Source: Chloroflexota bacterium (lineage in GTDB: Bacteria; Chloroflexota; UBA6077; CF-72). From it: a stretch of 64,000 nucleotides of DNA. Location: the NCBI GenBank assembly GCA_019247515.1, contig JAFAOS010000340.1, positions 315 through 64,314 of the forward strand, given 5' to 3'. The first letter of the stretch is position 1. The number at the start of each line of letters is the position of its first letter. Position numbers and translations under genes: made by a program. Shown here one piece after another: positions 5,216 through 59,220 of the stretch. The notes beneath the pieces are model-generated. The model had not been told where the DNA came from. It worked only from the letters and a program-made list of their open reading frames with translations, and searched no databases.

Positions 5216-5289
5216 CTCAAATTCTGTTGTGCGCCAGCCTACGCGCGGCGGACCCGATCGTCTTGAGCGAAACTACTCAACTACCGTAC

Positions 5290-9852: not shown

Positions 9853-10686
9853 ATGGCTCAGACACAGGATCGCACCGCCGCCACCGTTCCAACGGTCGAG
9901 TTCACCGAGAACTTTGTCGAGGCGGACGGATTCCGAATTCGCTATGCGGAAGCAGGCCAGGGTCACCCGGTCGTGTGGCTGCATGGTGCGGGTGGTCTGC
10001 ACTTCAAGAACGGACACCATCTGCTGGCCGCCACCCACCGCGTGATTGGAATCGAGATGCCCGGCTTCGGTGAGTCGGCCCTCAATGAGCGACACCAGAC
10101 CTCGCGCGACATGTCCGTGACGCTCGCTCACGCGGCCGCCGCTCTGGGTTTGGACCACTACATCCTCTGGGGCACCTCGTTCGGCGGGCGCATCGCCTTG
10201 TGGTTGGCGCTGCAAACGCGTGAGGCGATCGACAAGATTGTGCTCGAGGCGCCGATCGCCATCCTGCCCGAGGGCCACCAGCCTCCGCGCGATAGCTCAC
10301 CGGACGACTTCCTCAGGCGCTTCTACGCCCATCCCGAGCGAATGACACCCACCGCGCCGACCGATCAGGCGCTGATGCAGAAACAAATGGGGCTGGTCAT
10401 GCGGTTGCTCGGACCCACGTCACGGGATGCGGAGCTCGAGCGCCGCATGCCCGAGATTCAGACGCCGACACTGGTGCTGATCGGCACGCGCGACGGCGTC
10501 GTGTCTCCAGAGTGGGGCCGCCAGTATATGCGCCTGCTGCCCAACTGCAACTTCATGCTGGTCTACGACGCGGCGCATGAAATCGCCTCAGACCGCCCCG
10601 AAGCCTTCGTCGAGACGGTCTGGGATTTTCTGCAGCGCGGCGACGCCTTCGTGGTCGGTCAGCGCAGCACGGTCATATTTCCCTGA
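9853..10686 (+). CDS. Alpha/beta hydrolase (meta-cleavage-product/ester hydrolase-like), paralogue 1
   Basis: Start at the internal ATG 9853 of ORF 9700-10686. HGAGGLH oxyanion region, GTSFGG nucleophile elbow and a late AAHE His. Alignable end to end with 20274-21098. Confidence 0.8.
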   Translation: MAQTQDRTAATVPTVEFTENFVEADGFRIRYAEAGQGHPVVWLHGAGGLHFKNGHHLLAATHRVIGIEMPGFGESALNERHQTSRDMSVTLAHAAAALGLDHYILWGTSFGGRIALWLALQTREAIDKIVLEAPIAILPEGHQPPRDSSPDDFLRRFYAHPERMTPTAPTDQALMQKQMGLVMRLLGPTSRDAELERRMPEIQTPTLVLIGTRDGVVSPEWGRQYMRLLPNCNFMLVYDAAHEIASDRPEAFVETVWDFLQRGDAFVVGQRSTVIFP

Positions 10687-11773
10687 TTTGCGGGATCACC
10701 TTCGTCCCAAACAGCTCCACCGAGCGCAGCATTTTCTCATAGGGCAGAGCTGGCCCCTGGAACACCAGGTCGACCACGCCTACTCCGGTGGCAGCCTGCA
10801 TCTCCTTGAGCTGGCGAACCACGGTGTCTGGGCTGCCCCAGAAGTTGACCATGCCGATCGGGTTGCGAGGGGGTGGTGGAGCACCATTTCCGCCGGCGGC
10901 TGAGGGTGGTGGCCCCGGAAACGGCGCGCCTTGGGACACCAGCTCGCGCAGCACCGACTCCTTCGGCGTGAGTTTCACGCCACCGCCCATGAAGCCTTCG
11001 CCCAGGTCGCGCTCAGCCTCTTCATCCGTTTCGGCCACGTAGCACCAACCGCGGTACAGCAACTCGTCGGCGCTGGGTGTCCAGCCCATACGCTGCGCTT
11101 CCTCTTTATAGACCGCGAACTGCTGCGCGGCGATGCCCGGGGGCGTGAACGAGACTGCGCCGCCGAGTTTGTGGCGCGCGCCGAAGACCGCGGACTCGCG
11201 GCTGGCGGCCGACATGAACACCGGCGGATGCGGTTGCTGCACCGGCCGCGGCCAGATGGAGACCTCGCGGAACTCGAAATGGCGACCAACCCAGCCGAAC
11301 GGCTGCGGCTCGGTCCACGCCTTCAGGATGATCTCGATGCCTTCTTCGTACAGCGCGCGTGTCTCGTTCGGTTTGGTGCTATAGGTGAGGAATTCGTTCG
11401 GCGTGCCGCGCAGCAGACCGGCAACCACCTTTCCGCCACTCAGATTGTCGAGCATGGCGAACTCTTCGGCCACGCGTACGGGATTCGTCAGAGGCAGCGT
11501 CGGCCCGAGCAGGGCGATCCTGGCGCGCGTCAGGTGCTGGCTGACCGCGGCGGCGAGCAGGATCGGGTTTGGCGACAAACTCGAGCTCGAGTAGTGGTGC
11601 TCCGAACAGGCGACCCAATCGAATCCGACGCGGTCGGCGAGTTTGGCCACCTCCATGCCCACCTGGTGTGCACGGGTTCCGTGTTCCGGATTCCAGCGTT
11701 CGCCCGGTATCGGCCAGTCAGACCGCAGCTCCGGATCCAGGTACGTGAACGTGCAGAAAATGGAAGTCTTCAC
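10673..11773 (-). CDS. LLM class flavin-dependent oxidoreductase, paralogue of 19151-20257
   Basis: ORF 10673-12208 trimmed to the GTG at 11773. Upstream residues are Arg/Pro-rich with no homology, and the longer ORF would overlap the divergent gene at 12071. FDWVACSEHHYS, RIALLGPTLPLTNPVRVAEEFAMLD. Confidence 0.8.
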   Translation of the reverse strand: MKTSIFCTFTYLDPELRSDWPIPGERWNPEHGTRAHQVGMEVAKLADRVGFDWVACSEHHYSSSSLSPNPILLAAAVSQHLTRARIALLGPTLPLTNPVRVAEEFAMLDNLSGGKVVAGLLRGTPNEFLTYSTKPNETRALYEEGIEIILKAWTEPQPFGWVGRHFEFREVSIWPRPVQQPHPPVFMSAASRESAVFGARHKLGGAVSFTPPGIAAQQFAVYKEEAQRMGWTPSADELLYRGWCYVAETDEEAERDLGEGFMGGGVKLTPKESVLRELVSQGAPFPGPPPSAAGGNGAPPPPRNPIGMVNFWGSPDTVVRQLKEMQAATGVGVVDLVFQGPALPYEKMLRSVELFGTKVIPQIREI

Positions 11774-12031
11774 AGAACCCCTTCTGGGCCTCGCAACTTG
11801 CGCCCGACCGCAGGCATGCGCGGCGGTCGTCATCACGACCCGCACCAGTGTAACCATCGGAACCTGGTTCGGATACGCCCCGGCCGATGCCGAACGGGGG
11901 ACGCCGATCATCCCGCCCAGGGCTGCCGCCTGACGACCGCGACTGCCACGGCGCGCTGGGTGATCAGCATCCGGGATCTCGACTGAGGACACGCGCTGAT
12001 TCCCTGATCCTCTCGGGGGCGTACACTCCGC

Positions 12032-12049
12032 CTGTTTCGATCGAAACAG
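12032..12049. promoter_or_regulatory. Perfect 18-bp palindrome CTGTTTCGATCGAAACAG, candidate operator or 5' UTR hairpin
   Basis: Read directly from the sequence. It lies in the 297-bp divergent gap between LLM (start 11773, minus) and the CoA-transferase (start 12071), immediately before the AAGGGGA Shine-Dalgarno at 12053-12059. Confidence 0.4.
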
Positions 12050-12070
12050 CATAAGGGGAGCTATCCAGCA

Positions 12071-14398
12071 ATGGGCGGAGCGCTGCAGGGCATTCGCGTC
12101 GTCGACTTCGGGCAGTACCTGGCTGGCCCGCTGCTGGCAGTCATGCTCGCCGACCATGGCGCGGACGTGATTCGGGTCGATCCGCCTGGCGGCCCGCGAT
12201 GGAAACACCCCGCGAATGCCATGCTGCAGCGAGGCAAACGCAGCATTGTGCTCAACCTCAAGTCCGCTTCGGGCCGCTCCACGGCCGAGCGCCTCGCCGC
12301 GACCGCTGACATCGTCGTGGAGAATTTCCGGCCCGGCGTGATGGACCGACTCGGCGTCGGCGCGAGCGCCATGCTGGATCGTTGGCCGCGGCTGATCTAC
12401 TGTTCGTTACCGGGCTTTGGCAAGGATGACCCGCGCGCCGGTATGCGCGGCTGGGAAGGCGTGGTCTGCGCCGCGGCGGGCGTGTACCACCCGAGCGTGC
12501 GTCACCCGCCAGACGAAAGTCCAGCGTTCAACGCCATCCCGTTCGCCTCGAGTTACGCGGCCGCGATTGCCAGCCACACGGTCATGGCCGCCCTGATTGC
12601 GCGGCAGAGGGATGGCCTGGGGCAACGGATCGAAGTGCCGCTGTTCGACGCGCTCTTCGAGCTTCAGGGTCACTACGGCCAGAAGCTGCCGGGATCGTCG
12701 CGTCCGATGCCCAGGCCCGGCGCCGGCAACTTCGCGCCGGTCGGACATTTCCTCTGTGCTGACGGGCGCTGGGTTCATCTCGGACAGGTGCAGGAGCACC
12801 ATTACCGCTGGTTCACTCAGAAATTTATGCCAGCCGAGGCGCTCGCGCGCGGCCTGGGAGATTCGGCTCGCTTGCGCACGGACCCGGCGCTCAATGTGGA
12901 GGCGCTGCGTGTCCTGGCGGAGATCTTCAAGGCGCGGACCGCTTCGGAGTGGGAGCTCGCGATCAACCACGAGACCGGCGCGTGCACAGGGGTGTGTCAG
13001 ACAACAGAGGAGTGGCTCCACTCCGACGAGCACGCGCGCGAGTGCCGCGCGGTCATTTCACTGGTCGATCCCGAGTATGGGCCCACTTACCAGGCGGGCT
13101 ATCCCGTCTGGCTGAGCCGCACGCCACCTGAAGCGCAAGGCCCCAGGCACGCGCTAGATGCCGACCGCGCCGAGATCGTCGCCGAACTTGAATCGCCGCG
13201 TGCCGCGCTCGACGCTCCTCGCGCCAGCGATACCCGACCCGTATTGGCAGGCTACCGAGCCATCGACGTCAGTCAGGTCCTGGCGGGGCCAACTGCCACC
13301 CGCGTGCTCGCCGAGTACGGCATGGACGTGATCAAGGTCAACAGCCCGCTTGACAATCAGCTTGGTCTCCACCTGCACACCAACGGCGGCAAGCGCAGCA
13401 TGCTGCTGGACCTCAAAACCTCGGAAGGTAAAGAGATCCTGCATCGCCTGGCCGCAACCGTCGACGTCTTTCATCAGAACTTTACACGCGGTGTCGCCGA
13501 GCGCCTCGGCTGTGGTGAGCCAGCGATCCGTCGCATTCGGCCCGACGTTGTGTACTCGACCATCAGCGCCTTCGGGCAGGCGGGTTTTCGCTCGGGCTGG
13601 CGCGGTCGGGAGGAGCTCGGGCAAGCGGTGACGGGTGCGCAGTTGCGCTGGGGCGGCGATGAGGAGCCGCTCATGCAGGTGTACGCGCTCAACGACTTCG
13701 GCACGGGCCATTACAGCGCCTTCGGGATTCTGGTGGGGCTCTACCACCGGCTTCAGACCGGCGATGGTCAGCAGGTACACGCCTCACTCGCGCAGACGTG
13801 CACATACATGCAGATTCCGTTCATGGTCGGCCACGAGGGTCGGCTCTGGGACGAGCCACGCGGCCAGCACGTCAAGGGTTGGGGACCGCTCGACCGGCTG
13901 TACCAGGCCAGCGATCGCTGCTTTTACGTGGCGGCTCAATCAGCGTCGGAGCTGAAAAATGTGGAGGGTCTCCGTGGCGTGGAAGGCCTGGGCGGGCCCG
14001 CGCTCGAGGCGGAGCTCACTTCCCGCTTCCTGCAACAGCCGGCGACCACCTGGGTAAAGCGCCTTGTCGCGGCGGGAGTCGCGGCCAGCATCAACTTCGA
14101 ATTCTCCGCGGAGGTGATGGAGGACCCCGACGTCAAACGGCGTGGCTTGAGCCTCGTACGCCAGCACGCGGAGGTCGGGGAGGTGCGCTCCATCGCGCCC
14201 AGCCGGAGACTTTCGCGTACGCCTGCGCGGCCATCGTTTGCCGCCCCGCCCGCTGGCTGGCACACACGCGAGCTGGTCGAGGAAGCAGGTCTGGGCGACG
14301 AGTTCCAACAGCTTTTGTCCAGAGGCGTGTTGGCGGAGCGCCAGCCCGAAGGCATCTCACCCGTCGGCCAGCTCGTCGCCGTGCCGACAACCAGATGA
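12071..14398 (+). CDS. Tandem fusion of two family III (CaiB/BaiF) CoA-transferase domains
   Basis: 775 aa. The first domain starts LQGIRVVDFGQYLAGPLLAVMLADHGADVIRVDPP. The second starts about aa 395 with LAGYRAIDVSQVLAGPTATRVLAEYGMDVIKVNSP. Both are classic family III N-termini. Confidence 0.85.
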   Translation: MGGALQGIRVVDFGQYLAGPLLAVMLADHGADVIRVDPPGGPRWKHPANAMLQRGKRSIVLNLKSASGRSTAERLAATADIVVENFRPGVMDRLGVGASAMLDRWPRLIYCSLPGFGKDDPRAGMRGWEGVVCAAAGVYHPSVRHPPDESPAFNAIPFASSYAAAIASHTVMAALIARQRDGLGQRIEVPLFDALFELQGHYGQKLPGSSRPMPRPGAGNFAPVGHFLCADGRWVHLGQVQEHHYRWFTQKFMPAEALARGLGDSARLRTDPALNVEALRVLAEIFKARTASEWELAINHETGACTGVCQTTEEWLHSDEHARECRAVISLVDPEYGPTYQAGYPVWLSRTPPEAQGPRHALDADRAEIVAELESPRAALDAPRASDTRPVLAGYRAIDVSQVLAGPTATRVLAEYGMDVIKVNSPLDNQLGLHLHTNGGKRSMLLDLKTSEGKEILHRLAATVDVFHQNFTRGVAERLGCGEPAIRRIRPDVVYSTISAFGQAGFRSGWRGREELGQAVTGAQLRWGGDEEPLMQVYALNDFGTGHYSAFGILVGLYHRLQTGDGQQVHASLAQTCTYMQIPFMVGHEGRLWDEPRGQHVKGWGPLDRLYQASDRCFYVAAQSASELKNVEGLRGVEGLGGPALEAELTSRFLQQPATTWVKRLVAAGVAASINFEFSAEVMEDPDVKRRGLSLVRQHAEVGEVRSIAPSRRLSRTPARPSFAAPPAGWHTRELVEEAGLGDEFQQLLSRGVLAERQPEGISPVGQLVAVPTTR

Positions 14399-16363: not shown

Positions 16364-17461
16364 ATGCGCTTTTCGATCATCGGCGCGCCCCGACAGCGCT
16401 ACGATCTCGGCGAAACCGCCGCGCAGGCCTGGTGGGACTTCGTCGAGGATGCCGTGCTGGCCGATCAACTCGGTTTTGACGCGATCTACACCGGTGAGCA
16501 CCACTTCTGTTTCGCGTCTGGCAACTCTTCGCCGCTTGTGCTGTTGACGCACATCGCCGCACGCACCGAACGCATCCGTGTTGGCACGTCGGTGATCTGC
16601 GCACCCTTTCACAATCCGCTGCGCCTGGCGGAGGACATCGCGGCCGTCGATATCGTCTCCAGGGGTCGCTTCGACCTGGGTATCGGCGTTGGCTCGCAAT
16701 GGGAGGAGTTCCAGACGTTCGGCATCAAGCCGAAGGAGCGCGTCGGACGAACCTGGGAGATCATCGACATCATCGAGCGCTGCCTCCACGGCAAGGAGGA
16801 GACGTTTGATTGGGAGGGCAAATACTACCATTTTCCGGGCGTACGCTGGATCATGCAGCCTGTCCAGAAGCGGATTCCCATCCTCTGGGGAGGCTTCGGC
16901 CCCCAGAGCGTCGCGCGCGCGGCGGAGCGCGCCTACCACCTGATCGCCTTCGACGTCACCGGCGCCTACGAGCGAGTCATGCGCGAACACGGTCGCCGCC
17001 CGGAAGACTACCTCATCGGCTTCGTCAACCGCATCAGCATCGGCAGCACACGCGAAAAGGCCTTCGAGGCCGTCGCGGAGCCGTGCACCTGGACGAGCAA
17101 CCAGTACGCGTTGCGGCCTGACCTGGAGGGCAATAAGCCGCCTGAGTCCGCCGCCTTCAGCGTCGAGGACATTCGTCGCGCCTGGCAGCAGGGCAGCTTC
17201 CGCGGTGGGCCATTCTCGGTGCCAATCGCGGGGACGGTCGAAGAAGTGACCGAGCATTTCCTAAAAATTGTGCGCGGAGAGATGGGACTCATCACGCATG
17301 TTGGCTTGCAGGTCCGTGAGCCAGGCACAAAGACCGAGGACGTGCACCGCACGATGACCCTCTTCGCGCAGGAGATATTGCCGGTCCTCAGGGCGGAGGC
17401 GGCCAGAGTTGAGACACAGCGCAAGGCCAGCGGCCAGGTCGCTTCGGCCGGAGCACCGTAG
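16364..17461 (+). CDS. LLM class flavin-dependent oxidoreductase
   Basis: 365 aa. LGFDAIYTGEHHF, RIRVGTSVICAPFHNPLRLAEDIAAVDIVSRGRFDLGIGVG. Confidence 0.85.
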   Translation: MRFSIIGAPRQRYDLGETAAQAWWDFVEDAVLADQLGFDAIYTGEHHFCFASGNSSPLVLLTHIAARTERIRVGTSVICAPFHNPLRLAEDIAAVDIVSRGRFDLGIGVGSQWEEFQTFGIKPKERVGRTWEIIDIIERCLHGKEETFDWEGKYYHFPGVRWIMQPVQKRIPILWGGFGPQSVARAAERAYHLIAFDVTGAYERVMREHGRRPEDYLIGFVNRISIGSTREKAFEAVAEPCTWTSNQYALRPDLEGNKPPESAAFSVEDIRRAWQQGSFRGGPFSVPIAGTVEEVTEHFLKIVRGEMGLITHVGLQVREPGTKTEDVHRTMTLFAQEILPVLRAEAARVETQRKASGQVASAGAP

Positions 17462-17573: not shown

Positions 17574-18881
17574 TTACCATTCGACCTCTGGCGCGGGCAA
17601 CTCTGGCGTGCCGCCGCACTCGCGAGCCAGCACCGGCATGATCTCGTCGGCGAACGCGTGCATCTGCTCCTGCTCCTCCTCCCACGTGCAGCCAGGCCCG
17701 CCGAACAGCACTCCGCATGGGAAGTCGTCGTACTGCCCGATTTCCTTCACTCGCATGATCTCGTCGACCAGCTGCTGCACGCTCCCGCACAGCCGAGGGC
17801 GATGCACCGGTGGTCCGCCGGTCGCGCTCGGGGGCGCGAACCCGCCCAGGTAGCCCCAGAGGTGCTGGCCGGCGAGCTCGAACTGCTCGCGGCTGCCGAT
17901 ACCGTGATCCACGATGTAGACCTCCGCCGCGTGGACCACGCCGCGTTTGCGCTCGGAGTCCCAGCCGTACCTGAAGGCGCCGCGCTGCCGGTAGTCCGGA
18001 AAACCGCTCTTTTCGGCCTCCTGGTGATAAGCCTCCACCTCTTCGCGAACGCGGTCCGGTTCGATGGTCAGGAAGATCACGTTGATTCCGGCGCGCGCGG
18101 AGCGCCGCAGTGAGCTCATGTTCCTGACGTTCGGCTGCCAGAGCTGCGGATGCGGCTTCTGCAGCGGCTGTGGGAAGACGGACAGCTCCTTGAGCCGCGT
18201 CGCATGCGAGCGGATCCCGCTGGGCACGCCGGTCGGTTCCCCCAACTGGAGCACGTCTTCAACCCGGCGCCCCACCTCAGGCTGCGAGAAATACTCGATG
18301 GTCATCGGATGGTGGTGCGGCGTCCACGTCGGCGGGATGGTGTAGAACTGCCCCTGGTACGAGAAGGACGGCTCGGTCCACGCTTTGATGATGATCTCCA
18401 GACACTCGTCGTAGTAGGCACGACTGCGCATTTCGTCGCCGGCAGTCGAGCCGTACACCTGGCCAAAGACCTCCGTCTCGCGCGGCTGCGCGCCGCGGCC
18501 GACGCCGAACTCCAGTCGGCCCCCGCTCAGCACGTCGACCATCGCCGCCTGTTCGGCCAGTCGGACCGGGTGGTGCCAGGGCAGAATGTTGGCGAGCTGG
18601 CCGATGCGCAGGCGCCTGGTGCGGGTAGCGATCGCGGCGCTCATGAGCAGCGGGTTTGGACTGAACTCGGCACCCTCCGGCTGGAAGTGATGCTCGGTCA
18701 TGAAGAAGTAGTGAAACCCGAGCTGCTCGGCGAGTATCGCCTTGCGCACCTGGTTGACGACCGCGCGCTGGCGCGACGCGTGCATCGCTCCCAGGTCGCC
18801 CTTGGGTACGGTCACGCCGTTGGCGGTGAGCCGGATCGGCAGGTCGGTGGGGCCGTTCTCAACGGTCAGGAATTCGATCAT
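17574..18881 (-). CDS. LLM class flavin-dependent oxidoreductase (long form, 435 aa)
   Basis: LGFHYFFMTEHHFQPEGAEFSPNP, RIGQLANILPWHHPVRLAEQAAMVDVLSGGRLEFGVGRG. Confidence 0.85.
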   Translation of the reverse strand: MIEFLTVENGPTDLPIRLTANGVTVPKGDLGAMHASRQRAVVNQVRKAILAEQLGFHYFFMTEHHFQPEGAEFSPNPLLMSAAIATRTRRLRIGQLANILPWHHPVRLAEQAAMVDVLSGGRLEFGVGRGAQPRETEVFGQVYGSTAGDEMRSRAYYDECLEIIIKAWTEPSFSYQGQFYTIPPTWTPHHHPMTIEYFSQPEVGRRVEDVLQLGEPTGVPSGIRSHATRLKELSVFPQPLQKPHPQLWQPNVRNMSSLRRSARAGINVIFLTIEPDRVREEVEAYHQEAEKSGFPDYRQRGAFRYGWDSERKRGVVHAAEVYIVDHGIGSREQFELAGQHLWGYLGGFAPPSATGGPPVHRPRLCGSVQQLVDEIMRVKEIGQYDDFPCGVLFGGPGCTWEEEQEQMHAFADEIMPVLARECGGTPELPAPEVEW

Positions 18882-19150
18882 CGTGTTGCGGGCTCTTTTC
18901 TAGCGGGCAATTCTCGAGCACACGGCTGGCCGCCGTCGCGCGCGCGTGGCTACCATACCGGCCCATGGCACGCGTCTAGGTCAGATCACGCAATCCACGG
19001 GCGTCAGGAAGAACCTGTTCCAATTGGGAATGTCCTCCGGTGTGTCGGGCATGACGCCACCCATATACCCGACGTGCTTCGCTCACCGCGGCTGCGCTTG
19101 ATCTCCAGCGGTCTGACGTCATACCTTTTGGTAAAACGAGCGAGGGGTAC

Positions 19151-20257
19151 GTGAAGGCAGCATTGTTCACGGGCGCGAGCTACGCCGGGCCGTCCACGCG
19201 CGGCAAATGGCCTGTGCCAGTCAACGTTTATTCGAGAGAAGCGGCCGAGGACTCGATGCAATGGGCACTCGAGCAGTTCAGCATGGCAGACGAGCTCGGT
19301 TTCGACTGGGTCACGGTTGCCGAACATCACTTCTCGCCGTTTTCGCTGACACCTAACCCGATGGTCATGGCCGGAGCGCTGACGCAACGGGTGAAGCGGG
19401 CAAGGATTGCGCTGCTGGGTCCGAATATTCCGATCCAGAACCCGGTGCGCGTCGCCGAGGAATTCGCCATGCTCGACACGCTCACCAACGGGCGCGTTGT
19501 CGCCGGCATGCTGCGCGGGACCTCCAACGAGTATGTCACGTACAACATCAACCCCGCGGAATCGCGCGGGCGCTTTGATGAAGCCTTGCAGATCATCCGC
19601 AGAGCCTGGACGGAACCGCAGCCGTTCGGTTGGTGGGGTCGCTACTTCGAATATCGTTCGATCTCGATCTGGCCACGACCCGTCCAGCAGCCCCACCCTC
19701 CGATTTACATGTCCGGCTCGAGCCCGGAGTCAGCCGAGCTGGCCGCTCGCAACCGTATCGGCCTGGGCTTCGCGGTCACGTCCGTGCCCCTTGCAAGCCA
19801 ATCCGGAAAGCTGTATCGCCAGGTGGCGAATGAAGTGGGATGGACTCCGCAAGCGGATGACGTCATTTATCGGGTTGGGATCCACGTCGCCGCGACTGAC
19901 CAGCAGGCGTTCGACGAGCTGCAGAGCATTCCCGCGGACGGCGTCACGCGGCTCAGTCGCGCCAACCCGGTCATCGACGATGCGGTCGCCCAGGCGGGCT
20001 ACTACGGACGGGACCGCGAGCATCAGCAAGGCCGGGCCATGCTGAACCGGGGCGCTGAGTTTGCCGATCGGCTCAAGAATGGGCAGCAGCTGGCGGGCAG
20101 TCCAGATACCGTGCTGGAGCAGGTTTGCAGCGTGCATCGCGAGCTGGGCGCCGGCGTGCTGGACCTCATCTTCCGCGGCCCGGATCGTGACAGCACGCGG
20201 CGCTCGATCGAGCTGTTTGGCACTCACGTTCTGCCGCGCATTCACGAGCTCGACTGA
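19151..20257 (+). CDS. LLM class flavin-dependent oxidoreductase, paralogue of 10673-11773
   Basis: GTG start after GAGGGG. FDWVTVAEHHFS, RIALLGPNIPIQNPVRVAEEFAMLD, WTEPQPFGWWGRYFEYRSISIWPRPVQQPHPP. About 60 percent of positions are identical to the paralogue by eye. Confidence 0.85.
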   Translation: MKAALFTGASYAGPSTRGKWPVPVNVYSREAAEDSMQWALEQFSMADELGFDWVTVAEHHFSPFSLTPNPMVMAGALTQRVKRARIALLGPNIPIQNPVRVAEEFAMLDTLTNGRVVAGMLRGTSNEYVTYNINPAESRGRFDEALQIIRRAWTEPQPFGWWGRYFEYRSISIWPRPVQQPHPPIYMSGSSPESAELAARNRIGLGFAVTSVPLASQSGKLYRQVANEVGWTPQADDVIYRVGIHVAATDQQAFDELQSIPADGVTRLSRANPVIDDAVAQAGYYGRDREHQQGRAMLNRGAEFADRLKNGQQLAGSPDTVLEQVCSVHRELGAGVLDLIFRGPDRDSTRRSIELFGTHVLPRIHELD

Positions 20258-25840: not shown

Positions 25841-27736
25841 TTGTTCCGCGGACTCGACCGAATCGCGCTTGCCAAGCTGGCCGGGCACATCGAGCCAGTC
25901 CGCGTGCATGACGGTGAGGCGCTGTTTTTTCAGGGCGATCCAGGCGATGCGCTGTACCTGATCAGCCGAGGCGCGTATGGCGTCTACGCTCGGTCCTCCG
26001 AGTCCTCAGATGAGGTGCTGCTGCAGCGGCTCCACCGCGGAGAGGCGATCGGCGAGATTGCGCTGCTGACGGACGAGCCGCGCTCCTCGACCATCCGTGG
26101 CGAGGGCGACGGTGAGGTGCTGCGGCTGCCCAAAGCTCGCTTTCTAGATCTGGTTCGCAGCGACCCGTCGGTCGGGCTGGCGATTTCCGCAACGCTGATC
26201 CGGCGGTTACGCGCGGCGGACGCGGCGCGGCTCGGCACCCCGCCGCCGGCGCTGGACACCGGGTCGCTCGAAGCGGAGCGTGACGGACCTGCGCGCCTGA
26301 ACCCCCGCTGGACCGATGGATCAGGTCGGAGCAGGCCCAATAAGCGCGCGGTGGGTCTGGGATTGAGCGCGCTCCTGTTCGTTGGTGGCTGGTTTGGCGT
26401 GGCGCCGCCACCGGGACTCGGCGAGGCCGGCTGGCACGCGCTGGTCAGCCTGGTGGCGATCGTGCCCGCGCTGGTGCTGGAGGCAATGCCCGACGGCGCC
26501 CTCGCGCTGTTGCTGGTCAGTATCTGGGCGGCTGGTGGCGTGGTTCCGACCAATGTTGCGTTGGGCGGCTTCAGTACGACCACGTTCGTCCTGGTCGTGG
26601 CGGTGTTCACGGTCGGCGCCGCCATCGCGTCCTCGGGCCTGCTGTACCGGCTCGCGCTCTGGTCCGCCTCGCGAACGGCGAGCTTCGCCGGACAGGTCCT
26701 CACTCTCGGCGTCTCAGGGGCCGTGCTCGGCCCAGCCGTGCCCAACGCGACCGGTCGGATGGCGCTCGCGGCCAGCGCGGTGGGTGAACTTGCCGACGCG
26801 CTGGGTTACGAACCCGGCAGTTCGACAGCCAGCGGTCTGGCGATGGCCGCTCTGGCCGGCTACGGCCAGATGGTGGCCCTCGTTCCCACGTCGTCCAGTG
26901 TTGCGCTCCTTGCCCTGGCGCTCTTGCCCGACACGGCGCGCGCGGACGTGACATGGATTGGATGGGGCGTGCGTGCGCTGCCGCTACACCTGGTGGTGTT
27001 AGGGGGTCTGCTGGCGACCACGCTGTGGATCAGCCGGCCGTGGCAGTCGGGCCGGTCGAAGGACCGCATGGTAAAGGCGCTGACACTTCAGCGCGCACTC
27101 CTCGGACGGCTCTCGCGAAGCGAGGCGGTGGCGGCCGTGACGACGCTCGCATTGTTGGTGGGCTTTGCCACCCAGCCAGTCCACGGGGTCGACCCCGCCT
27201 GGCTGTGTATCGGCGCCATGGTGGTGCTGGCAGCGTGCGGGGTTCTGACCGTCGACACGTTGCGCACGGTCAACTGGAGCACGGTGTTGCTGCTCGGGAT
27301 GCTTGCGGGTCTCGGCAGCGTGTTCACCGCCACCGGCCTGGACGCGTGGCTGGGCAGCGTGGTCGTCGCCTCGGTCGGCGGACTGGCCAGTCTGCCGGTC
27401 GTGTTCGTGCTCGGCCTGGCGGTCGCGTGTATCGGCCTCAGCTTTGCGCTGCGCTGGCAGGCCGCGGTGCCCATCGTCGTGGTGGCCATGTCGCCGGTCG
27501 CGCGCGCCGCGGCCATCGATCCATGGATCGTGGCGATCGTCACGCTGACGGCTTCCAATACATTTTTCCTGCCCTACCAGAGCACCATCTACCTGGCGCT
27601 GTACGACGGCGCGGGCGCGCGCCAGGGATTGTTCCGCCACGCCCAGTTTCGCCCGCTCAGCGTTGCATACGCCTTGCTGGTCCTCGGTGGCCTCGCGATC
27701 AGCGTGCCGTTCTGGCACAGCCTCGGACTGCTGTGA
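25841..27736 (+). CDS. Cyclic-nucleotide-binding domain fused to a multi-pass ion-transporter-superfamily (SLC13/ArsB-like) permease
   Basis: N-terminal CNB domain: LFRGLD..., GDPGDALYLISRG, GEIALLTDEPRSSTI (phosphate-binding cassette with Arg). About 470 aa of hydrophobic helices follow. TTG start at 25841; the true start may lie a few codons upstream, after the GGGAGGAAGGGG at 25775-25788. Confidence 0.75.
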   Translation: MFRGLDRIALAKLAGHIEPVRVHDGEALFFQGDPGDALYLISRGAYGVYARSSESSDEVLLQRLHRGEAIGEIALLTDEPRSSTIRGEGDGEVLRLPKARFLDLVRSDPSVGLAISATLIRRLRAADAARLGTPPPALDTGSLEAERDGPARLNPRWTDGSGRSRPNKRAVGLGLSALLFVGGWFGVAPPPGLGEAGWHALVSLVAIVPALVLEAMPDGALALLLVSIWAAGGVVPTNVALGGFSTTTFVLVVAVFTVGAAIASSGLLYRLALWSASRTASFAGQVLTLGVSGAVLGPAVPNATGRMALAASAVGELADALGYEPGSSTASGLAMAALAGYGQMVALVPTSSSVALLALALLPDTARADVTWIGWGVRALPLHLVVLGGLLATTLWISRPWQSGRSKDRMVKALTLQRALLGRLSRSEAVAAVTTLALLVGFATQPVHGVDPAWLCIGAMVVLAACGVLTVDTLRTVNWSTVLLLGMLAGLGSVFTATGLDAWLGSVVVASVGGLASLPVVFVLGLAVACIGLSFALRWQAAVPIVVVAMSPVARAAAIDPWIVAIVTLTASNTFFLPYQSTIYLALYDGAGARQGLFRHAQFRPLSVAYALLVLGGLAISVPFWHSLGLL

Positions 27737-27785: not shown

Positions 27786-30731
27786 ATGAGCGCACATCCA
27801 ACTCAGGACACGGACGTGCGCGGCGCCGCCGATACTGACTTCCTGGCCCTCGGCCTTGGCGGTACCAGCATGATGTCCATGCTGTGGACAATCGCTCTTG
27901 GGCACCGGGCGGTGGGTGTCGAGATGCGCGGCGATCCGTTTCTGGGCGTCCACTGGAATATCCGGGCCGACCTGTATCACCAGCTCGGGTTGATCGACCG
28001 GTTGATGCTCGAGCGCTACGGCGAAGAGCGGCTGCCGCGGCGCGGTGATTCGGATAAGCTCTTTCGACTCGCGGAGACGCTCTACAGCACCGAAACCAGG
28101 TCGGGCGACATTGTCGCCGACGAAGTCATCGACGGGTTCGACAGCGAGCAGCACATCGTCGGGACGATCCACCACGTGGAGTTCATTGACGACCGCTGGC
28201 GGGACGGCGTGCCGAATCGGACCGTTACGCTATTGAGTCCGCCGCCTGCACCGGAGTTGCCCGACGAGCGGCTCATCCGAGACAACATTCGAGACGTGCT
28301 CGACGGCCCCTCCACCTTCCAGGCCGGCGCCGCTTCGGTGCTCGTGCTGTTGCGGCGCTACCTCGAAAAACTGGAGCAACTGGACCTCGAGGGCGGCTAC
28401 GAGCCGCGTGTACGTTTGTTCACTCGCCACCGTGTCTTGAACACTCCGGAAGGCTTCATCAAACTTGACGATGGTCGCATTGGCTTTCGCATCGAGGCCT
28501 TGCAGGAGCTCGATTACCGAGGCAAATTCGTCCGCGTTCGCCGACCCGGCACCGGTCCTATCGAGCTCGGCGTGCCGCGGTTGTTCATGATCGCCCAAGG
28601 CTCCCACAGTACCGATGCAGAGCGACTCGGCTTCAAACAGGAGGACGTGGTGGTGGACCACGACGACGGCCGCGGCCCGGTCGTGGCGCAGGCGGACTTC
28701 CTTGCGGGTCTGCTCGAAGTGCTGGTTGGCGGTCGCTTGCGTCGGCGGATCTCGTCCGAGTTCGACGAGAACGGCACCGAGTACTGGGTGCGCCAGATCG
28801 CGGTCGGCCACGAAAACGATCCGGAGGTGGGCTGGTGCCTGGTCCAGGTTCCGGACTTCAAGGCGTTCGATCCGGTGGCCGCTGGCCTGGTGCCGGAGGG
28901 CACTGATGGGCGGTCACCCGAGTTCTTCGCCGCCTACGAGAACCTGGTCTACGACTTCTATGTGCAGCACGTGGCCGACATTCTGGACATGCCGAAGGAG
29001 CAAGTGCAGAAGATCCAATCGGCATACGGTCCGAAACTCTTTACGCTGGTAGAGCGGATGGGGGACGACGCCCTGATCGCGCCGAATGGAGTGGTCGCCG
29101 GCGACTCGTTCGGCAACGGCCACTTTCTCACCTCGGGCGGAGCGATGACCGGCATGGTGGGCCACAGCGCACGGGTGTACGAATACTGGCGGGCCTGCGA
29201 CGCCGGCACCCGGCACGCGGAGGCGATTCGCACGCTCGCCGACAAGATCATGATGGATACCAGCGACTGGCTCCACGTGAGTGCCAAAGAGTACAGCGAG
29301 GCCGTGCCGATCAATTTCGGCGCCGAACGGATCGCGCAGATTTCGGCGCAAAGCGGCATCTCCTCGAGCGCCCGGTCGGCGGCGATCGACGCCTCGCGCC
29401 GACTGCGTCACGCGTTGCTGCCGTTGGATCCATCCGACTGGCGGCGATTGTTCCTCCGCAACGGGAAGGTCCACTCGGCGCCGCTGCCAGACCTGCACGC
29501 GATTCATCCAGCACTGCGTACACAAGTAGCGCGGCGCGCGCAAACGCGTATTGGTGTGGCGACCGTCGTAGCTGACCTCCAACCCGAGACGGTGCGCTAT
29601 GTCGAGGCACTGCTCCGCCAGCCGGGCGTCAACCTGGGCTTGATCACCGGTGCGTCGGTCACGGCGCTGCCTGACGCGTGGCACGAGCGCGTGGTCGCAA
29701 AGGCGCACGTATCGAACATTCTCAATGCAGACGAGCTCGCCGAGGCTGTTCGGGTGATGCACGATCGCATCGGATTACCCGATCGGTTCGTGACGCCCGC
29801 CGATGAACTGCAAGTGCCTGTCGCGGCAGCCCGCGAAATACTCGGCATCGCCGGCGCGCGGGTGTCAGAAGCGCGTAACTTTCGTGATGGGACGCGCATG
29901 CGTGAGCGGCTGGAGGCCCTGGGCCTACCAATCGCCCGTTACGCCAGGGTCGAAAGCATCGAGGATGGTCTCGTGTTCGGCACCGAGATCGGCTACTACC
30001 CGCTGGTCGTCAAGCCCAACGAAGGTGCCGGTGCCGACAACACGTACCGGGTTCAGACCGAGGACGAGCTGCGCGAGCTGCTCGAGCGACTGCAACCGAG
30101 CGCGGACCGTCCGCTGATCTGTGAGGAGTTCATCAAAGGTCACGAGTGCACGCTGGAAGTCATCACCATCCACGGCGTCCCCGCCTGGTTCTCGGCCACG
30201 CGCTTCGAACCGGAGCTGCTCGACGTGCTCCTGTCGCCCGGTACTCCGCTCACGATCACGTTGCCGCGTGAACCTGACGATCCAGCCGACCCACTGCTGC
30301 GACGTATGGGGTTCGCGGCCCTCAAGGCGCTGGGAATGGGCACCGGCTTGTCGACCATACGCTGGCACCGCCGCCAGGATGGAACATCTGTCATTGCTAA
30401 CGTGAGCGCGAGCCCACCCCCGGCCAGCGTCATGTCACTGATGGAGCTCGTGTACGGCGCCGACATGCACCGCGTGTGGGCCAACACCCTCACGAATGAA
30501 GTGTTCGCGCCGATCCCGCGGTTGATCGCCGCTGGCGGCGTCTTTTTCCGCCGCCCGCTTCAGTCTCAGCTCGGCGCGCTCGATGCAGTCCTGGCCGAGT
30601 TCCAGGACGTGGTGGTGGAGGCCCGCTTGCCGGAGTATGTGCTGGCGCGGCATGCCGAGACGAGAGTGGTGGACGAAGCACTGCATCGCATCGCCGCAGC
30701 GGTTCGCGCGCCGGTTTATTCGACGATCTGA
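27786..30731 (+). CDS. 981-aa fusion protein: flavoprotein (halogenase/monooxygenase)-like N-terminal region plus C-terminal ATP-grasp domain
   Basis: ATG 27786 inside ORF 27663-30731. N-terminal FLALGLGGTS (degenerate dinucleotide-binding loop) and VAGDSFGNGHFLTSGGAMTGMVGH (resembles the GDAxxFxDPxxSxG motif of flavin halogenases/monooxygenases). C-terminal YPLVVKPNEGAGADNTYRV and CEEFIKGHECTLEVI are ATP-grasp motifs. Confidence 0.75.
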   Translation: MSAHPTQDTDVRGAADTDFLALGLGGTSMMSMLWTIALGHRAVGVEMRGDPFLGVHWNIRADLYHQLGLIDRLMLERYGEERLPRRGDSDKLFRLAETLYSTETRSGDIVADEVIDGFDSEQHIVGTIHHVEFIDDRWRDGVPNRTVTLLSPPPAPELPDERLIRDNIRDVLDGPSTFQAGAASVLVLLRRYLEKLEQLDLEGGYEPRVRLFTRHRVLNTPEGFIKLDDGRIGFRIEALQELDYRGKFVRVRRPGTGPIELGVPRLFMIAQGSHSTDAERLGFKQEDVVVDHDDGRGPVVAQADFLAGLLEVLVGGRLRRRISSEFDENGTEYWVRQIAVGHENDPEVGWCLVQVPDFKAFDPVAAGLVPEGTDGRSPEFFAAYENLVYDFYVQHVADILDMPKEQVQKIQSAYGPKLFTLVERMGDDALIAPNGVVAGDSFGNGHFLTSGGAMTGMVGHSARVYEYWRACDAGTRHAEAIRTLADKIMMDTSDWLHVSAKEYSEAVPINFGAERIAQISAQSGISSSARSAAIDASRRLRHALLPLDPSDWRRLFLRNGKVHSAPLPDLHAIHPALRTQVARRAQTRIGVATVVADLQPETVRYVEALLRQPGVNLGLITGASVTALPDAWHERVVAKAHVSNILNADELAEAVRVMHDRIGLPDRFVTPADELQVPVAAAREILGIAGARVSEARNFRDGTRMRERLEALGLPIARYARVESIEDGLVFGTEIGYYPLVVKPNEGAGADNTYRVQTEDELRELLERLQPSADRPLICEEFIKGHECTLEVITIHGVPAWFSATRFEPELLDVLLSPGTPLTITLPREPDDPADPLLRRMGFAALKALGMGTGLSTIRWHRRQDGTSVIANVSASPPPASVMSLMELVYGADMHRVWANTLTNEVFAPIPRLIAAGGVFFRRPLQSQLGALDAVLAEFQDVVVEARLPEYVLARHAETRVVDEALHRIAAAVRAPVYSTI

Positions 30732-31237
30732 TAGCCGGCGAGGACCGGCGCTGCGTTGTCGCGATCGCTCACGGCCACCTGATGCGCGATCAGCTCAGCC
30801 AGACGGTAGGTAAGCTCGCGATGGTGAACCGAGAGCATGCGCGCCAGGGCCAGGACCAGCTTGTAGGCGCCGAGACTCCCCTGGTCGAGGAGCTCCTCGA
30901 ACCGCTCGCGGCGAAACCGAAAGATCGTCAGCGGTCCCTGCGCACGAATAGTCGCCGATCGCGCATGACCGTCGAGGATGGCGATCTCGCCGAAGGCAGC
31001 CCCCGGCTCCAGGATGCGAATCTGCCAGTCGCCCTTGTGGACCTGGGCTTTGCCCTCGTACAGGATGTACCACGCGTCGCCGGGCTCGCCCTCGTGAAAA
31101 ATGACCTCGCCGTCGGTGAAGCGCTGGACGTCCATGATGCGCACCACCTCGGCGCGCTCGGCAGAGTCCAGGGTGTCGAAGAGGGGCGTGGTCAGCAGGA
31201 AACCGACTACGGTGTCGAGCGAGATAGGTTGGTCCAT
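30716..31237 (-). CDS. Stand-alone cyclic-nucleotide-binding domain protein (no HTH)
   Basis: Internal ATG 31237 of ORF 30716-31330. LFDTLDSAERAEVV..., GEPGDAWYILYEG, FGEIAILDGHARSATI. The 3' end overlaps the convergent ATP-grasp gene by 16 nt. Confidence 0.75.
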   Translation of the reverse strand: MDQPISLDTVVGFLLTTPLFDTLDSAERAEVVRIMDVQRFTDGEVIFHEGEPGDAWYILYEGKAQVHKGDWQIRILEPGAAFGEIAILDGHARSATIRAQGPLTIFRFRRERFEELLDQGSLGAYKLVLALARMLSVHHRELTYRLAELIAHQVAVSDRDNAAPVLAGYQIVE

Positions 31238-33578: not shown

Positions 33579-35630
33579 ATGAGTATTGATGTTCAGGCCG
33601 CCCAGAGTGGCAACGGTCAGCCACGAGGAACGATTTTCATCACGGATTACGATTTCGGCGATGTCGACATCGAGCGAAACATTATCGAGGGTGCGGGTTT
33701 CGCTCTGGTCGCCGCCCAGTGCAAGAGCGAAGACGAAGTCATCGCGCAGGGGCGAGATGCGGACGGGGTGATCGCACAGTACGCACGCGTCGGCGCTAAC
33801 GCGATTGCGGCGTTCACGCGATGCCGCGTGATCGCCCGTTATGGAACTGGTGTCGACATTGTCGACGTCGACGCGGCGACCCGCAAAGGCATCCAGGTCA
33901 CGAATGCCCCGAACGATTGGTGCGCGGAAGAGGTCGCCGACCACGCCGTTGCGCTCTGGTTGGCGGCGCTCCGCAAGCTCCCTCAGTACGATCGCGCGAC
34001 GCGACAGGGCGAGTGGCGCTGGCAGACCGGACAGCCGATCTGGCGCTTGCGCGGTCGCGTCCTTGGCATCCTTTCGTTCGGTGTCATCGCCCGAGCGATT
34101 GCTCAACGCGTCAGGCCATTTGGCGTCGACATCTGGGCCAACGCGACCCGTGCGTCGACTATGCGGGCCATGGAGCAGCAGAACGTGCGGCCCGTCTCGT
34201 TTGACGAACTTGTCGAGGGCTCCGATTACCTGATCATCCAGGCGCCGCTCACGGACCGGACGTACCACCTGTTCAATCGACAGACGCTGCGGCGGATGAA
34301 ACCCACGGCGATCCTCATCAACACGGCACGTGGTCCAATCGTGGAAGACGCCGCGTTGTACGAAGCACTGGCAAATGGGTGGATCGCCGGAGCCGGACTC
34401 GACGATCTGGAGGAGGAGCCGGCCAAGCAGCGCGACTGGCGCCCGGAGAACCCGCTGCTGGGGCTGCCCAACGTGGTCGTGACGCCACACGCCGCCTACT
34501 ACTCAGAAGAGTCAATCGGATTGGTACGCCGGATCGCGGCTGAGGAGGCGGTGCGCGTGTTGAGCGGACTGGCGCCGCATTCGCCCGTGAATATCGTTCC
34601 GCAAGCGGCAGTCTCGCCTCCAACGGAACCCGCGATCGAGCACGTATCCATCCCAGATATCGGGATTACCGCGAGCCGTGTTGGCCTCGGCACCTGGGCC
34701 ATGGGCGGGATGCAGTGGGGCGGCGCGGACGACGACGCGTCGGTGCGGACCATCCACGCCGCACTGGACATGGGCGTGTCGCTGATCGATACGGCCTTCG
34801 CTTACGGCTTCGGCCATTCCGAGGAAGTCATTGGCCGAGCGCTCGCCGAGCACGGGGGCCGGGATCGCGTCATCATCGCCACCAAAGGCGGACTCGAACG
34901 CGTTGGAGACGGAGTGGTCCGCGACTCGTCGCGCGACCACATGTTCAGGCAGGTCGAGGACTCGTTGCGCCGACTCCGCACCGACTACATCGACCTCTAC
35001 CAGGTCCACTGGCCGGACGATGCGACGCCCTACGAGGAGACCGCGCGGGCCCTGGCAGACCTGCAAGCCGCCGGAAAGATCCGTGCGATTGGTGTGTCCA
35101 ACTACACGATCGAAGCCATGGAACGAATCCGCGGCGTGGCGTCCCTGGCATCCGCGCAGCCCCCACTCAACCTCTTCGAGCAGCAAGCCCTCACGGACAT
35201 TATTCCGTGGTGCCGCACGAACCAGGTCGCCACGTTGACGTATGGCGCGCTGTGCCGTGGACTGCTGACTGGGTCCATCGACGAGATCTCGCGGTTTGAA
35301 GGCGACGACCTCCGCAATACTGATCCAAAGTTTCTACCACCACGTTTTGCTCAATATATCGAAGCCGTAAGACGACTTGCTGCATTCGCTCGCGAAAGCT
35401 ATGGCAAATCGATCCTCGCACTGGCGGTCCGATGGGTACTCGATCAGCCGGGCGTATCGGTGGCACTCTGGGGAGCCCGCCGACCAGGCCACCTCGACGC
35501 CCTGAAGGATGTTATGGGGTGGCGCCTCGACCCGAATGCGCTTGTCGACATCGACGGCATCATTCGCGAGACAGTGCGTGATCCGGTCGGTCCGGAGTTC
35601 ATGGCGCCGCCAGAGCAGCAGGTCGTCTAG
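33579..35630 (+). CDS. Fusion of a D-isomer-specific 2-hydroxyacid dehydrogenase and an aldo/keto reductase
   Basis: aa 1-335: VADHAVALWLAALRKL, INTARGPIVE, VVVTPHAAYYSEES. aa 350-683: LGTWAMGG..., LIDTAFAYGFGHSEEVIGRAL, IDLYQVHWPD, IRAIGVSNY. Confidence 0.85.
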   Translation: MSIDVQAAQSGNGQPRGTIFITDYDFGDVDIERNIIEGAGFALVAAQCKSEDEVIAQGRDADGVIAQYARVGANAIAAFTRCRVIARYGTGVDIVDVDAATRKGIQVTNAPNDWCAEEVADHAVALWLAALRKLPQYDRATRQGEWRWQTGQPIWRLRGRVLGILSFGVIARAIAQRVRPFGVDIWANATRASTMRAMEQQNVRPVSFDELVEGSDYLIIQAPLTDRTYHLFNRQTLRRMKPTAILINTARGPIVEDAALYEALANGWIAGAGLDDLEEEPAKQRDWRPENPLLGLPNVVVTPHAAYYSEESIGLVRRIAAEEAVRVLSGLAPHSPVNIVPQAAVSPPTEPAIEHVSIPDIGITASRVGLGTWAMGGMQWGGADDDASVRTIHAALDMGVSLIDTAFAYGFGHSEEVIGRALAEHGGRDRVIIATKGGLERVGDGVVRDSSRDHMFRQVEDSLRRLRTDYIDLYQVHWPDDATPYEETARALADLQAAGKIRAIGVSNYTIEAMERIRGVASLASAQPPLNLFEQQALTDIIPWCRTNQVATLTYGALCRGLLTGSIDEISRFEGDDLRNTDPKFLPPRFAQYIEAVRRLAAFARESYGKSILALAVRWVLDQPGVSVALWGARRPGHLDALKDVMGWRLDPNALVDIDGIIRETVRDPVGPEFMAPPEQQVV

Positions 35631-58991: not shown

Positions 58992-59220
58992 CGGCAACCA
59001 CCGCGCGTGGTGTCCGCGCTCAGATCGACGTGCAGAATACGATCGAAGTAGCCGTTGGGCATGGCGTGCTTGCGTCCCTTCGATGTGGCGCCAGTGCAGT
59101 TGGCTCTGACCAGATGAGAACAAAGTTACTACAGACAGCGTAGGCGTCATGCGCCGGCTGCACAATGCCACGAGGGGGGACTTTCCCCAAGTGAGTATCC
59201 TGGTTCTCTGGTAGTGACGG

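Follow-up and report, generated by a model that had tools for sequence, protein, structure and literature searches.

The window analyzed here is a 64,000-nucleotide (nt) stretch of DNA from a member of the Chloroflexota (contig JAFAOS010000340.1). On its forward strand, at positions 27786-30731, lies a gene for a 981-amino-acid (aa) fusion protein that joins an N-terminal flavoprotein-monooxygenase-like module (hereafter the N-module) to a C-terminal ATP-grasp-like domain. A gene for a stand-alone cyclic nucleoside monophosphate (cNMP)-binding protein is almost always adjacent to fusion genes of this type, and the ATP-grasp site is lost; together, these observations point to a signal-controlled rather than a two-step biosynthetic enzyme. 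The reading that we favor, with a confidence that stops somewhat short of even, is that the fusion is a signal-regulated flavoenzyme whose ATP-grasp domain would serve as a non-catalytic docking or sensing domain, coupling the N-module to the cNMP receptor.

Translation of the gene gives 981 open codons and a stop, with no internal stop. Guanine-cytosine (GC) contents of 0.69/0.48/0.77 at the three codon positions, in a window of 64% GC, fit a real gene, and the ATG at 27786 is consistent with the N termini of ~40 aligned full-length homologs. The product is identical to a protein that NCBI lists from a metagenome-assembled genome (MAG) as "hypothetical protein JO352_23270 [Chloroflexi bacterium]". 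An earlier note, made from the letters of this DNA alone, had described the reading frame and quoted a number of motif strings, and all of these are present at the expected positions in the translation (GLGGTS at aa 23, AGDSFGNGH at aa 438, LVVKPNEG at aa 740, CEEFIKG at aa 779, and VIANVSASPPP at aa 869). Its author had not recognized the domain combination. We likewise found no description of this architecture, of the N-module family, or of the pairing of the fusion with a cNMP-binding protein in the searched libraries (Pfam, NCBIfam, and PADLOC) or in full-text literature, where queries on FHA/flavin/Ktedonobacter, fusions of ATP-grasp with flavin adenine dinucleotide (FAD) monooxygenases, ATP-grasp with cNMP-binding, and bacterial ATP-grasp pseudoenzymes did not return the family.

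The N-module has the fold and FAD fingerprints of group A flavoprotein monooxygenases

The N-module spans aa 1-580 (27786-29525, forward strand). No Pfam model of any kind matches aa 1-600, no FAD-family model matches at E ≤ 1, and no NCBIfam model matches the module. Its AlphaFold2 model, built from 51 sequences, has a predicted template modeling (TM) score of 0.79 and a predicted local distance difference test (pLDDT) score of 71.8. When this model was compared with the PDB using Foldseek, the top 50 matches were all group A flavoprotein monooxygenases of the PHBH-type two-domain fold (probability 1.00), among them PnpA, rifampin monooxygenase, FlsO1, PgaE, MtmOIV, RebC, and PHBH itself (E = 3e-8 to 1e-6). 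TM-scores to these solved structures range from 0.31 to 0.57, at ~11% identity. AlphaFold2 and Foldseek thus recover a Rossmann-type flavoprotein fold for the N-terminal ~580 aa, where the earlier note had suspected a flavin enzyme. Distant relatives of the module (25-34% identity), and only these, reach the Pfam model PF01494 (FAD_binding_3). Alignment of the N-module profile to these PF01494-positive relatives using hhalign gave a probability of 100% and an E value of 2.2e-39 over 399 columns; it pairs their canonical GxGPGG loop with G23-L-G25-G26-T27-S28, and their GDAVGNAHFLTSGG block with GDSFGNGHFLTSGG of the window protein.

Two elements carry the FAD fingerprints of the group, E46 and G439-D440. 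The first is a beta-alpha-beta dinucleotide-binding element at aa 19-46 (FLALGLGGTS...VGVE; 27840-27923, forward strand), placed by alignment and hhalign, in which G23, G25, G26, T27, and the acidic E46 at the end of beta-2 are invariant, the last of these in all 51 sequences. Its loop reads G23-x-G25-x-x-S28, the third glycine being replaced by serine here and by asparagine in most relatives; the degenerate loop reported in the earlier note is therefore borne out by the alignment, and a GD motif is present as well. This second element, at aa 437-460 (VAGDSFGNGHFLTSGGAMTGMVGH; 29094-29165, forward strand), matches the fingerprint by which group A monooxygenases contact the flavin ribityl chain. 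G439-D440 is invariant in the same sequences and aligns with the GD of the PF01494-positive relatives, which have the motif GDxxGNxHFLTSGG in common with the N-module. Because E46 and G439-D440 are invariant, the module likely binds flavin, despite the Ser or Asn at the third loop glycine.

The earlier note had likened this region to both flavin-dependent halogenases and aromatic hydroxylases. Its hydroxylase half holds, in that Foldseek finds a PHBH/FAD_binding_3-type fold; its halogenase half does not. The sequence WxWxIP is absent from the fusion protein, the Trp_halogenase model PF04820 finds no match, and the top Foldseek matches include no halogenase, the neighbors in the fold search being aromatic hydroxylases. 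We rejected a halogenase on these grounds.

Several segments of the N-module are near-invariant across the 51 sequences and poorly modeled by AlphaFold2, namely aa 105-147, aa 341-348, and a tail at aa 531-585. The first (GDIVADE..HIVGTIHHVEFIDDRWRDG; 28098-28226, forward strand) is an insertion that ordinary group A monooxygenases lack; it hardly varies and contains many His, Asp, and Glu residues, yet its pLDDT is 29-43. This stretch (HIVGTIHHVEFIDDRW) and the similarly His/Asp/Glu-rich aa 341-348 (GHENDPEV; 28806-28829), both with pLDDT below 50, might serve as a metal site or as a contact surface for a partner. The tail is best conserved as RRxRHxLLPLDPSDWRRLFLRNGKV..LP.LH..HP (aa 538-578; 29397-29519, forward strand), and it occurs in all architectures of the family with low model confidence.

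These features bear on whether the N-module is an enzyme at all. Conceivably the whole protein is non-enzymatic, the N-module being a second pseudoenzyme or a ligand sensor with a degenerate or structural flavin site, and the fusion serving a cNMP pathway as scaffold or sensor. The non-canonical GxGxxS/N loop and the lack of a significant FAD model in Pfam agree with such a role, as does the occurrence of non-redox members of the fold among the Foldseek matches, such as the Diels-Alderase PyrE3 (5xgv); the extreme conservation of the module could moreover reflect protein-protein interfaces. We nonetheless consider this unlikely, since E46 and G439-D440 are invariant, GDxxGNxHFLTSGG also occurs in relatives whose GxGxxG loop is canonical, and a ratio of nonsynonymous to synonymous substitution rates (dN/dS) of 0.05, along with the invariance of dozens of charged residues, is what an active site typically shows.

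Relatives of the fusion were sought among 5.8 billion proteins. For the N-module, 1.84 billion cluster representatives were also scanned exhaustively with HMMER, which yielded only 164 relatives, the PF01494-positive fringe and the MFS fusions described below among them. Approximately 45 proteins have the same architecture as the window protein, with N-modules that are 66-85% identical. The majority form of the family instead carries a C-terminal FHA domain: hundreds of such proteins of ~760 aa, from Ktedonobacteria and many soil metagenomes, have N-modules ~70% identical to that of the window protein. Stand-alone N-modules of 585-595 aa occur in Microtetraspora and Kitasatospora (~70% identical), and in several lineages a transporter of the major facilitator superfamily (MFS) is fused ahead of the module in proteins of ~1100 aa (45-52% identity). 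Across the FHA, stand-alone, and MFS architectures, identity of the N-module ranges from 45% to 72%. These data show that the N-module is a self-contained, extremely conserved unit with interchangeable accessory parts (none, FHA, MFS, or ATP-grasp). That a module of ~575 residues can be ~70% identical from Chloroflexota to Actinomycetota, Spirochaetota, and Proteobacteria and have neither a Pfam model nor a name marks an annotation gap; cluster names of the MFS-fused and other divergent relatives are all unnamed or generic, and hundreds of "FHA domain-containing" or "hypothetical" proteins could be renamed once the chemistry of the module is known.

Individual members of these classes have features of their own. 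Proteins with a full MFS transporter and an N-module were found at loci L073, L078, L079, and L081 and in P0123-P0127 and P0136, and Microtetraspora sp. NBRC 13810 has both an MFS-fused form and a stand-alone copy. At one metagenomic locus (P0006; JGI 3300047160), a 642-aa protein with an N-terminal FHA domain and a FAD_binding_3-like region (4165-6093) is encoded two genes upstream of the fusion, representing a second, unrelated pairing of FHA with a flavoprotein in one neighborhood. The Kitasatospora stand-alone N-module (BAAAUA010000014.1, locus L006, 4726-11999) lies in a same-strand run, after genes for a TauD-like dioxygenase, a pyridoxal phosphate (PLP)-dependent decarboxylase, and a Csp (copper storage protein family) protein and before genes for a DDAH-like protein and a Na+/H+ exchanger. 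This run is possibly a small-molecule pathway that could reveal the substrate of the N-module.

Graded decay of the ATP-grasp-like domain

The C-terminal domain (aa 590-981; 29553-30728, forward strand) is modeled by AlphaFold2 with a pLDDT of 90.2 and has the full three-subdomain (A, B, and C) ATP-grasp fold. Among hundreds of ATP-grasp matches in Foldseek, the closest is RizA (4wd3; E = 6.8e-26, TM-scores 0.71/0.74), and BL00235, BacD/YwfE, PurK, and PurT are also close; the earlier note was thus correct in seeing a complete domain here. A sequence search of the PDB with the fusion protein retrieved only the L-amino-acid ligases RizA and BacD (E ~1e-7, aa 599-786). These results show that the domain derives from an L-amino-acid-ligase-like enzyme. 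Pfam ATP-grasp matches all fall below their gathering scores and cover only aa 705-795, the best being PF02222 (19.6 bits against a cut-off of 27, aa 708-784 only), and NCBIfam agrees.

Alignment shows that nucleotide-binding elements are retained. These comprise YPLVVK743PNEGAGADN, with the phosphate-binding lysine and flexible loop (29997-30041, forward strand), and the E780-E781 hinge (CEEF; 30123-30128), such that the domain has both the phosphate-binding Lys (K743, LVVKP) and the acidic hinge of active enzymes. The catalytic and metal site, at aa 857-877 (TIR859W...VIAN872VS874AS876P; 30354-30416, forward strand), is lost according to family and PDB profile alignments. In this region, the family consensus and the stand-alone relatives read mEW...visEvaaRP, and a profile alignment of the consensus (...lEw...viaEvsaRPp...) lands on hLEiy...ivGEIAMRiggg of RizA and on Q285/E299/N301/R303 of E. 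coli carbamoyl-phosphate synthetase, the Mg-ligand positions of that enzyme. The window protein has R859/N872/S874/S876 at these positions. R859, N872, and S874 thus stand where an active enzyme has its acidic Mg2+ ligands and the Asn of E-x-N, and S876 stands in place of the catalytic Arg of E-x-N-x-R (E-I-A-M-R in RizA).

The earlier note had proposed, from an alignment by eye, substitutions at the metal-binding Glu and at the Arg. Both replacements are real, in a register shifted by one residue: the profile alignments put N872, not A871, at the second Glu, so the change is Glu to Asn rather than Glu to Ala, and they add a further loss, the first acidic ligand being R859. Its label of ligase is probably wrong, given that the catalytic residues are replaced and that sister proteins lack the ATP-binding lid. 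This residue evidence argues against L-amino-acid-ligase activity of the window protein.

A comparison of 45 relatives that carry an ATP-grasp-type domain distinguishes three states. In the first (~10 proteins), the E/E(D)/R triad and the lid are kept, and precomputed Pfam ATP-grasp matches exist in exactly these proteins. In the second, to which the window protein belongs, the lid is kept and the triad is replaced in various ways, including R/N/S, R/D/R, S/D/S, R/G/G, and K/G/G. In the third (~16 proteins of ~930 aa), the whole B-subdomain is deleted, including the VVKP strand and the CEE hinge (aa ~725-785). Since the triad substitutions differ between relatives, constraint appears to have been relaxed at exactly these positions. 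The stand-alone ATP-grasp relatives at loci L016 and L023, which have no N-module, keep the full motif set, and the ancestor of the domain was therefore presumably an active enzyme; the L016 protein scores above the Pfam gathering threshold (36.1) and is a candidate for the ancestral, active form.

Loss of the site has not released the domain from selection. Among four moderately diverged Spirochaetia genes of the second state, dN/dS is 0.12 for the C-terminal domain and 0.05-0.07 for the N-terminal domain, with unsaturated dS of 0.4-0.9, and the non-catalytic motifs VPAW, LPRExDDPAD, and PIPR are invariant in all three states. Because purifying selection persists and these motifs are kept, the degenerate domain appears still to be functional. 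The family thus provides a natural series from enzyme domain to pseudoenzyme within one orthologous group, with selection maintained throughout.

Two further observations concern individual loci. At L016 (4395-7179), in a Myxococcales MAG, the gene for the stand-alone relative directly follows a second, Ddl-like ATP-grasp gene, and neither a flavoprotein module nor a cNMP-binding gene was found in the surroundings. At three other loci, all on MAG contigs, several overlapping reading frames each carry a part of the fusion gene (L009, 4117-7251; L014, 4215-7224; L019, 4343-6828), reflecting either assembly frameshifts or pseudogenes.

An alternative is a bifunctional biosynthetic enzyme, in which the N-module would hydroxylate or oxidize a small molecule, such as an amino or aromatic acid, and the ATP-grasp domain would still ligate the product to an amine or carboxylate through non-canonical residues (for example, N872 together with an Arg-assisted, low-metal route). 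The complete fold, the retained K743, flexible loop, and E780-E781, and the purifying selection on the domain are all compatible with this proposal. Moreover, a sister subclade of fusions keeps every catalytic residue, which suggests that the fusion may originally have acted as a ligase, and the TauD-like, PLP-decarboxylase, and DDAH-like genes around the Kitasatospora stand-alone N-module resemble a small-molecule pathway. In the window protein, however, the substitutions at both acidic Mg ligands and at the Arg are non-conservative, and they vary from one relative to another; the entire ATP-binding lid is missing from relatives that share its N-module and its cNMP partner; Pfam ATP-grasp scores are sub-threshold and confined to the first half of the domain; and the neighborhood of the fusion contains no other conserved biosynthetic genes. 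A bifunctional enzyme therefore strikes us as quite unlikely.

The cNMP-binding partner and its proposed control of the fusion

Downstream of the fusion gene, on the reverse strand, is a gene for a stand-alone cNMP-binding protein of 173 aa (30716-31237 in the NCBI model; the longest open reading frame [ORF] runs to 31330). The two genes are convergent, and their 3' ends overlap by 16 nt. The partner protein scores 76.3 bits against the Pfam cNMP_binding model (PF00027; cut-off 27.5), its phosphate-binding cassette FGEIAILDGHARSAT is intact (pattern GE...R[ST]A), and Pfam finds no DNA-binding domain in it.

We collected 107 related loci, typed them by the partner domain of the N-module, and searched every ORF for an ortholog of the cNMP-binding protein. 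An ortholog is encoded directly downstream of the fusion in 18 of the 21 non-redundant ATP-grasp-type loci (E = 1e-27 to 1e-67) and at a distance of 5.7 kb in one more (L002); none was found in the remaining two (L021 and L031). The same search found no ortholog in any of ~45 assessable FHA-type, MFS-type, and stand-alone loci. The ATP-grasp-type loci are spread over Chloroflexota, Spirochaetota, Gemmatimonadota, Myxococcota, Alphaproteobacteria, and Actinomycetota, and the association is seen with each of the three domain states. By all-against-all clustering of ORFs of at least 120 aa from the 21 loci, the cNMP-binding gene is the only conserved neighbor of the fusion, and no conserved second enzyme or peptide that might act as a ligase-substrate partner was found among them. 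Viewed from the partner side, the cNMP-binding family comprises 139 proteins at E ≤ 1e-20, at least 14 of which share a contig with a match to the fusion. Four fresh look-ups from this side gave one locus with an adjacent fusion, one with a transporter context like that of L002, and two without a fusion. These mixed results indicate that the link is strong and enriched, but not exclusive.

Genes for metallo-beta-lactamase-fold proteins lie beside fusions in only two loci (L004, 6939-7799, reverse strand; L106, 7028-7804, forward strand), and one of them matches the model for Anti-Pycsar Apyc1, a cNMP phosphodiesterase family, adding to the cyclic-nucleotide theme. An anti-phage, Pycsar-like role was considered and rejected: PADLOC has no match for the fusion, the window contains no cyclase, and the context is one of ordinary chromosomal metabolism. 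PADLOC matches to the partner reflect only its generic cNMP-binding domain. A scan for promoters and terminators around the gene pair gave counts at background and was not used as evidence.

How might such a system work? In the signal-regulated flavoenzyme that we favor, the ATP-grasp domain would no longer ligate anything and would instead be a docking or sensing part, possibly still binding nucleotide in the window lineage. It would couple the flavoenzyme to the convergently encoded cNMP-binding protein through a putative interaction, such that cyclic AMP (cAMP) or cyclic GMP (cGMP) controls the oxidative activity of the N-module. For relatives of the FHA type, phospho-threonine signaling may provide the equivalent input. 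Several observations weigh against this model. On the side of the N-module, the third Gly of GxGxxG is Ser or Asn, Pfam FAD models are non-significant on the fusion protein, TM-scores to solved monooxygenases are only 0.35-0.56, and the three invariant segments are poorly modeled. On the side of the ATP-grasp domain, some chemistry might survive the loss of the canonical residues, K743, the Gly-rich loop, and the EE hinge all being retained in the window lineage. Finally, proteins of the cNMP-binding family also occur outside the system, two of the four reciprocal look-ups having found no fusion nearby, and the fusion and cNMP-binding genes are convergent rather than co-transcribed.

A broader version of the model, which we regard as doubtful, is that the N-module defines an unrecognized, ultra-conserved family of signaling-output flavoenzymes switched by interchangeable inputs, these being an FHA domain that reads Ser/Thr-kinase signals in most members and, here, a fossilized ATP-grasp domain acting as receptor for a dedicated cAMP/cGMP-binding protein. 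The activity being switched might be oxidation of a common metabolite, a lipid, or a protein side chain, or the controlled production of a reactive or messenger molecule. If correct, this would add a new effector branch to bacterial cyclic-nucleotide signaling, and the fusion would be the first bacterial ATP-grasp pseudoenzyme caught in graded decay. The bacterial cAMP/cGMP receptors known so far are mainly transcription factors, channel gates, and acetyltransferase regulators; in either version of the model, control of a flavoenzyme by way of a lone cNMP-binding protein and a retired ATP-grasp domain, if true, would add a new route of output.

Transporters are a further recurrent element of the context. 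Immediately upstream of the fusion, 50 nt away, is a gene for a 631-aa protein with an N-terminal cNMP-binding domain and a DASS/CitMHS-type anion transporter (25841-27736, forward strand), putatively a cyclic-nucleotide-gated solute carrier. This gene is not conserved at other related loci, and it fits the theme of cNMP and transport. Genes for a Na+/H+ exchanger with a Usp domain (Na_H_Exchanger+Usp) flank the fusion in 3 of the 21 loci (L001, L002, and L031). Along with the MFS fusions, these links hint at a membrane-proximal or transport-related role. The quinone oxidoreductases KefF and KefG gate KefC and KefB, and by analogy the fusion might be an ancillary redox subunit of ion or solute transporters, with cNMP and FHA inputs tuning transport. 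The placement of the N-module behind MFS transporters in several lineages is consistent with this analogy, as are the Na_H_Exchanger+Usp flanks, the exchanger gene that follows the Kitasatospora stand-alone gene, and the cNMP-gated DASS transporter of the window. We find it very unlikely all the same: transporter neighbors occur in a minority of loci (the exchanger in the three just named), FHA-type loci have no conserved transporter, and the likeness to KefF is one of analogy, not of homology found here.

The remaining genes of the window include a run downstream of the fusion that looks like a sugar-acid pathway. It contains a 683-aa fusion of a D-2-hydroxyacid dehydrogenase with an aldo/keto reductase (33579-35630, forward strand), along with an IlvD/Edd-type dehydratase, a GH15 glycosidase, and a glucose-6-phosphate dehydrogenase. 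An operon joining these genes to the flavoprotein fusion was rejected, as none of them recurs in 20 related loci. Elsewhere, four luciferase-like (F420/FMN-type) monooxygenase genes fall within 10 kb (10673-12406, reverse; 16364-17461, forward; 17574-18899, reverse; 19151-20257, forward) and adjoin genes for a family 5 solute-binding protein, an alpha/beta hydrolase, and a GntR regulator. On the reverse strand, positions 56424-59417 encode a 998-aa LonC/LonB-like AAA protease homolog with AAA_32, LonB lid, LonC helical, and Lon_C domains.

Relation to known systems

The ATP-grasp-like domain resembles the L-amino-acid ligases RizA (4wd3), BL00235 (3vot), and BacD/YwfE (3vmm), as well as PurK and PurT, in its three-subdomain fold of ~400 residues (TM-scores 0.66-0.74, E = 1e-20 to 7e-26). 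The layout in family members (...lEw...GxxvisEvaaRPpG...) aligns with hLEiy...GELIVGEIAMRIGGG of RizA, and the ATP-binding Lys and hinge are kept. Unlike those ligases, with which it is only 14-18% identical, the window protein has R859/N872/S876 at the Mg-ligand and Arg positions; its domain is fused to a flavoprotein module, scores below the Pfam gathering threshold, and has relatives that tolerate deletion of the lid.

For the N-module, the closest comparison is with group A flavoprotein monooxygenases (PF01494), including PHBH, PnpA, rifampin monooxygenase, PgaE, and RebC, with which it shares the fold, the beta-alpha-beta element ending in Glu, and the GD fingerprint; its motif also recalls that of squalene epoxidase. 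It differs from them in approximately three invariant insertions (aa 79-147, 291-301, and 364-383) and a conserved 40-residue tail. Identity of ~70% across phyla is far above the norm for the superfamily, whereas identity to solved structures is ~11%; there is no Pfam match, and the third Gly of GxGxxG is replaced.

Zeaxanthin epoxidase combines a flavoprotein monooxygenase with a C-terminal FHA domain. The majority form of the N-module family has the same layout, which points to regulation of the flavoenzyme by a phospho-peptide reader. The N-module nevertheless belongs to a different monooxygenase subfamily, and the window protein has an ATP-grasp-like domain in place of FHA.

Precedent for ATP-grasp folds that do not catalyze comes from the synapsins, which are non-catalytic. 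TTLL12 is another non-catalytic protein of this fold (PMC3520985). As in those proteins, the fold and nucleotide-contacting elements are kept here, and the domain would be used as a regulatory or binding module rather than as a ligase. Those proteins are eukaryotic and unrelated in sequence, whereas the present domain is bacterial, fused to a flavoenzyme, and found as a graded series (intact, site-lost, and lid-deleted) in one orthologous family. The fusion protein is, at the level of fold, a member of two known superfamilies; it lacks the metal-binding and catalytic residues of an active ATP-grasp enzyme and falls short of the Pfam thresholds for both superfamilies. Its main interest lies in an unannotated, ultra-conserved flavoenzyme family with swappable signaling inputs, together with a bacterial series of ATP-grasp pseudoenzymes.

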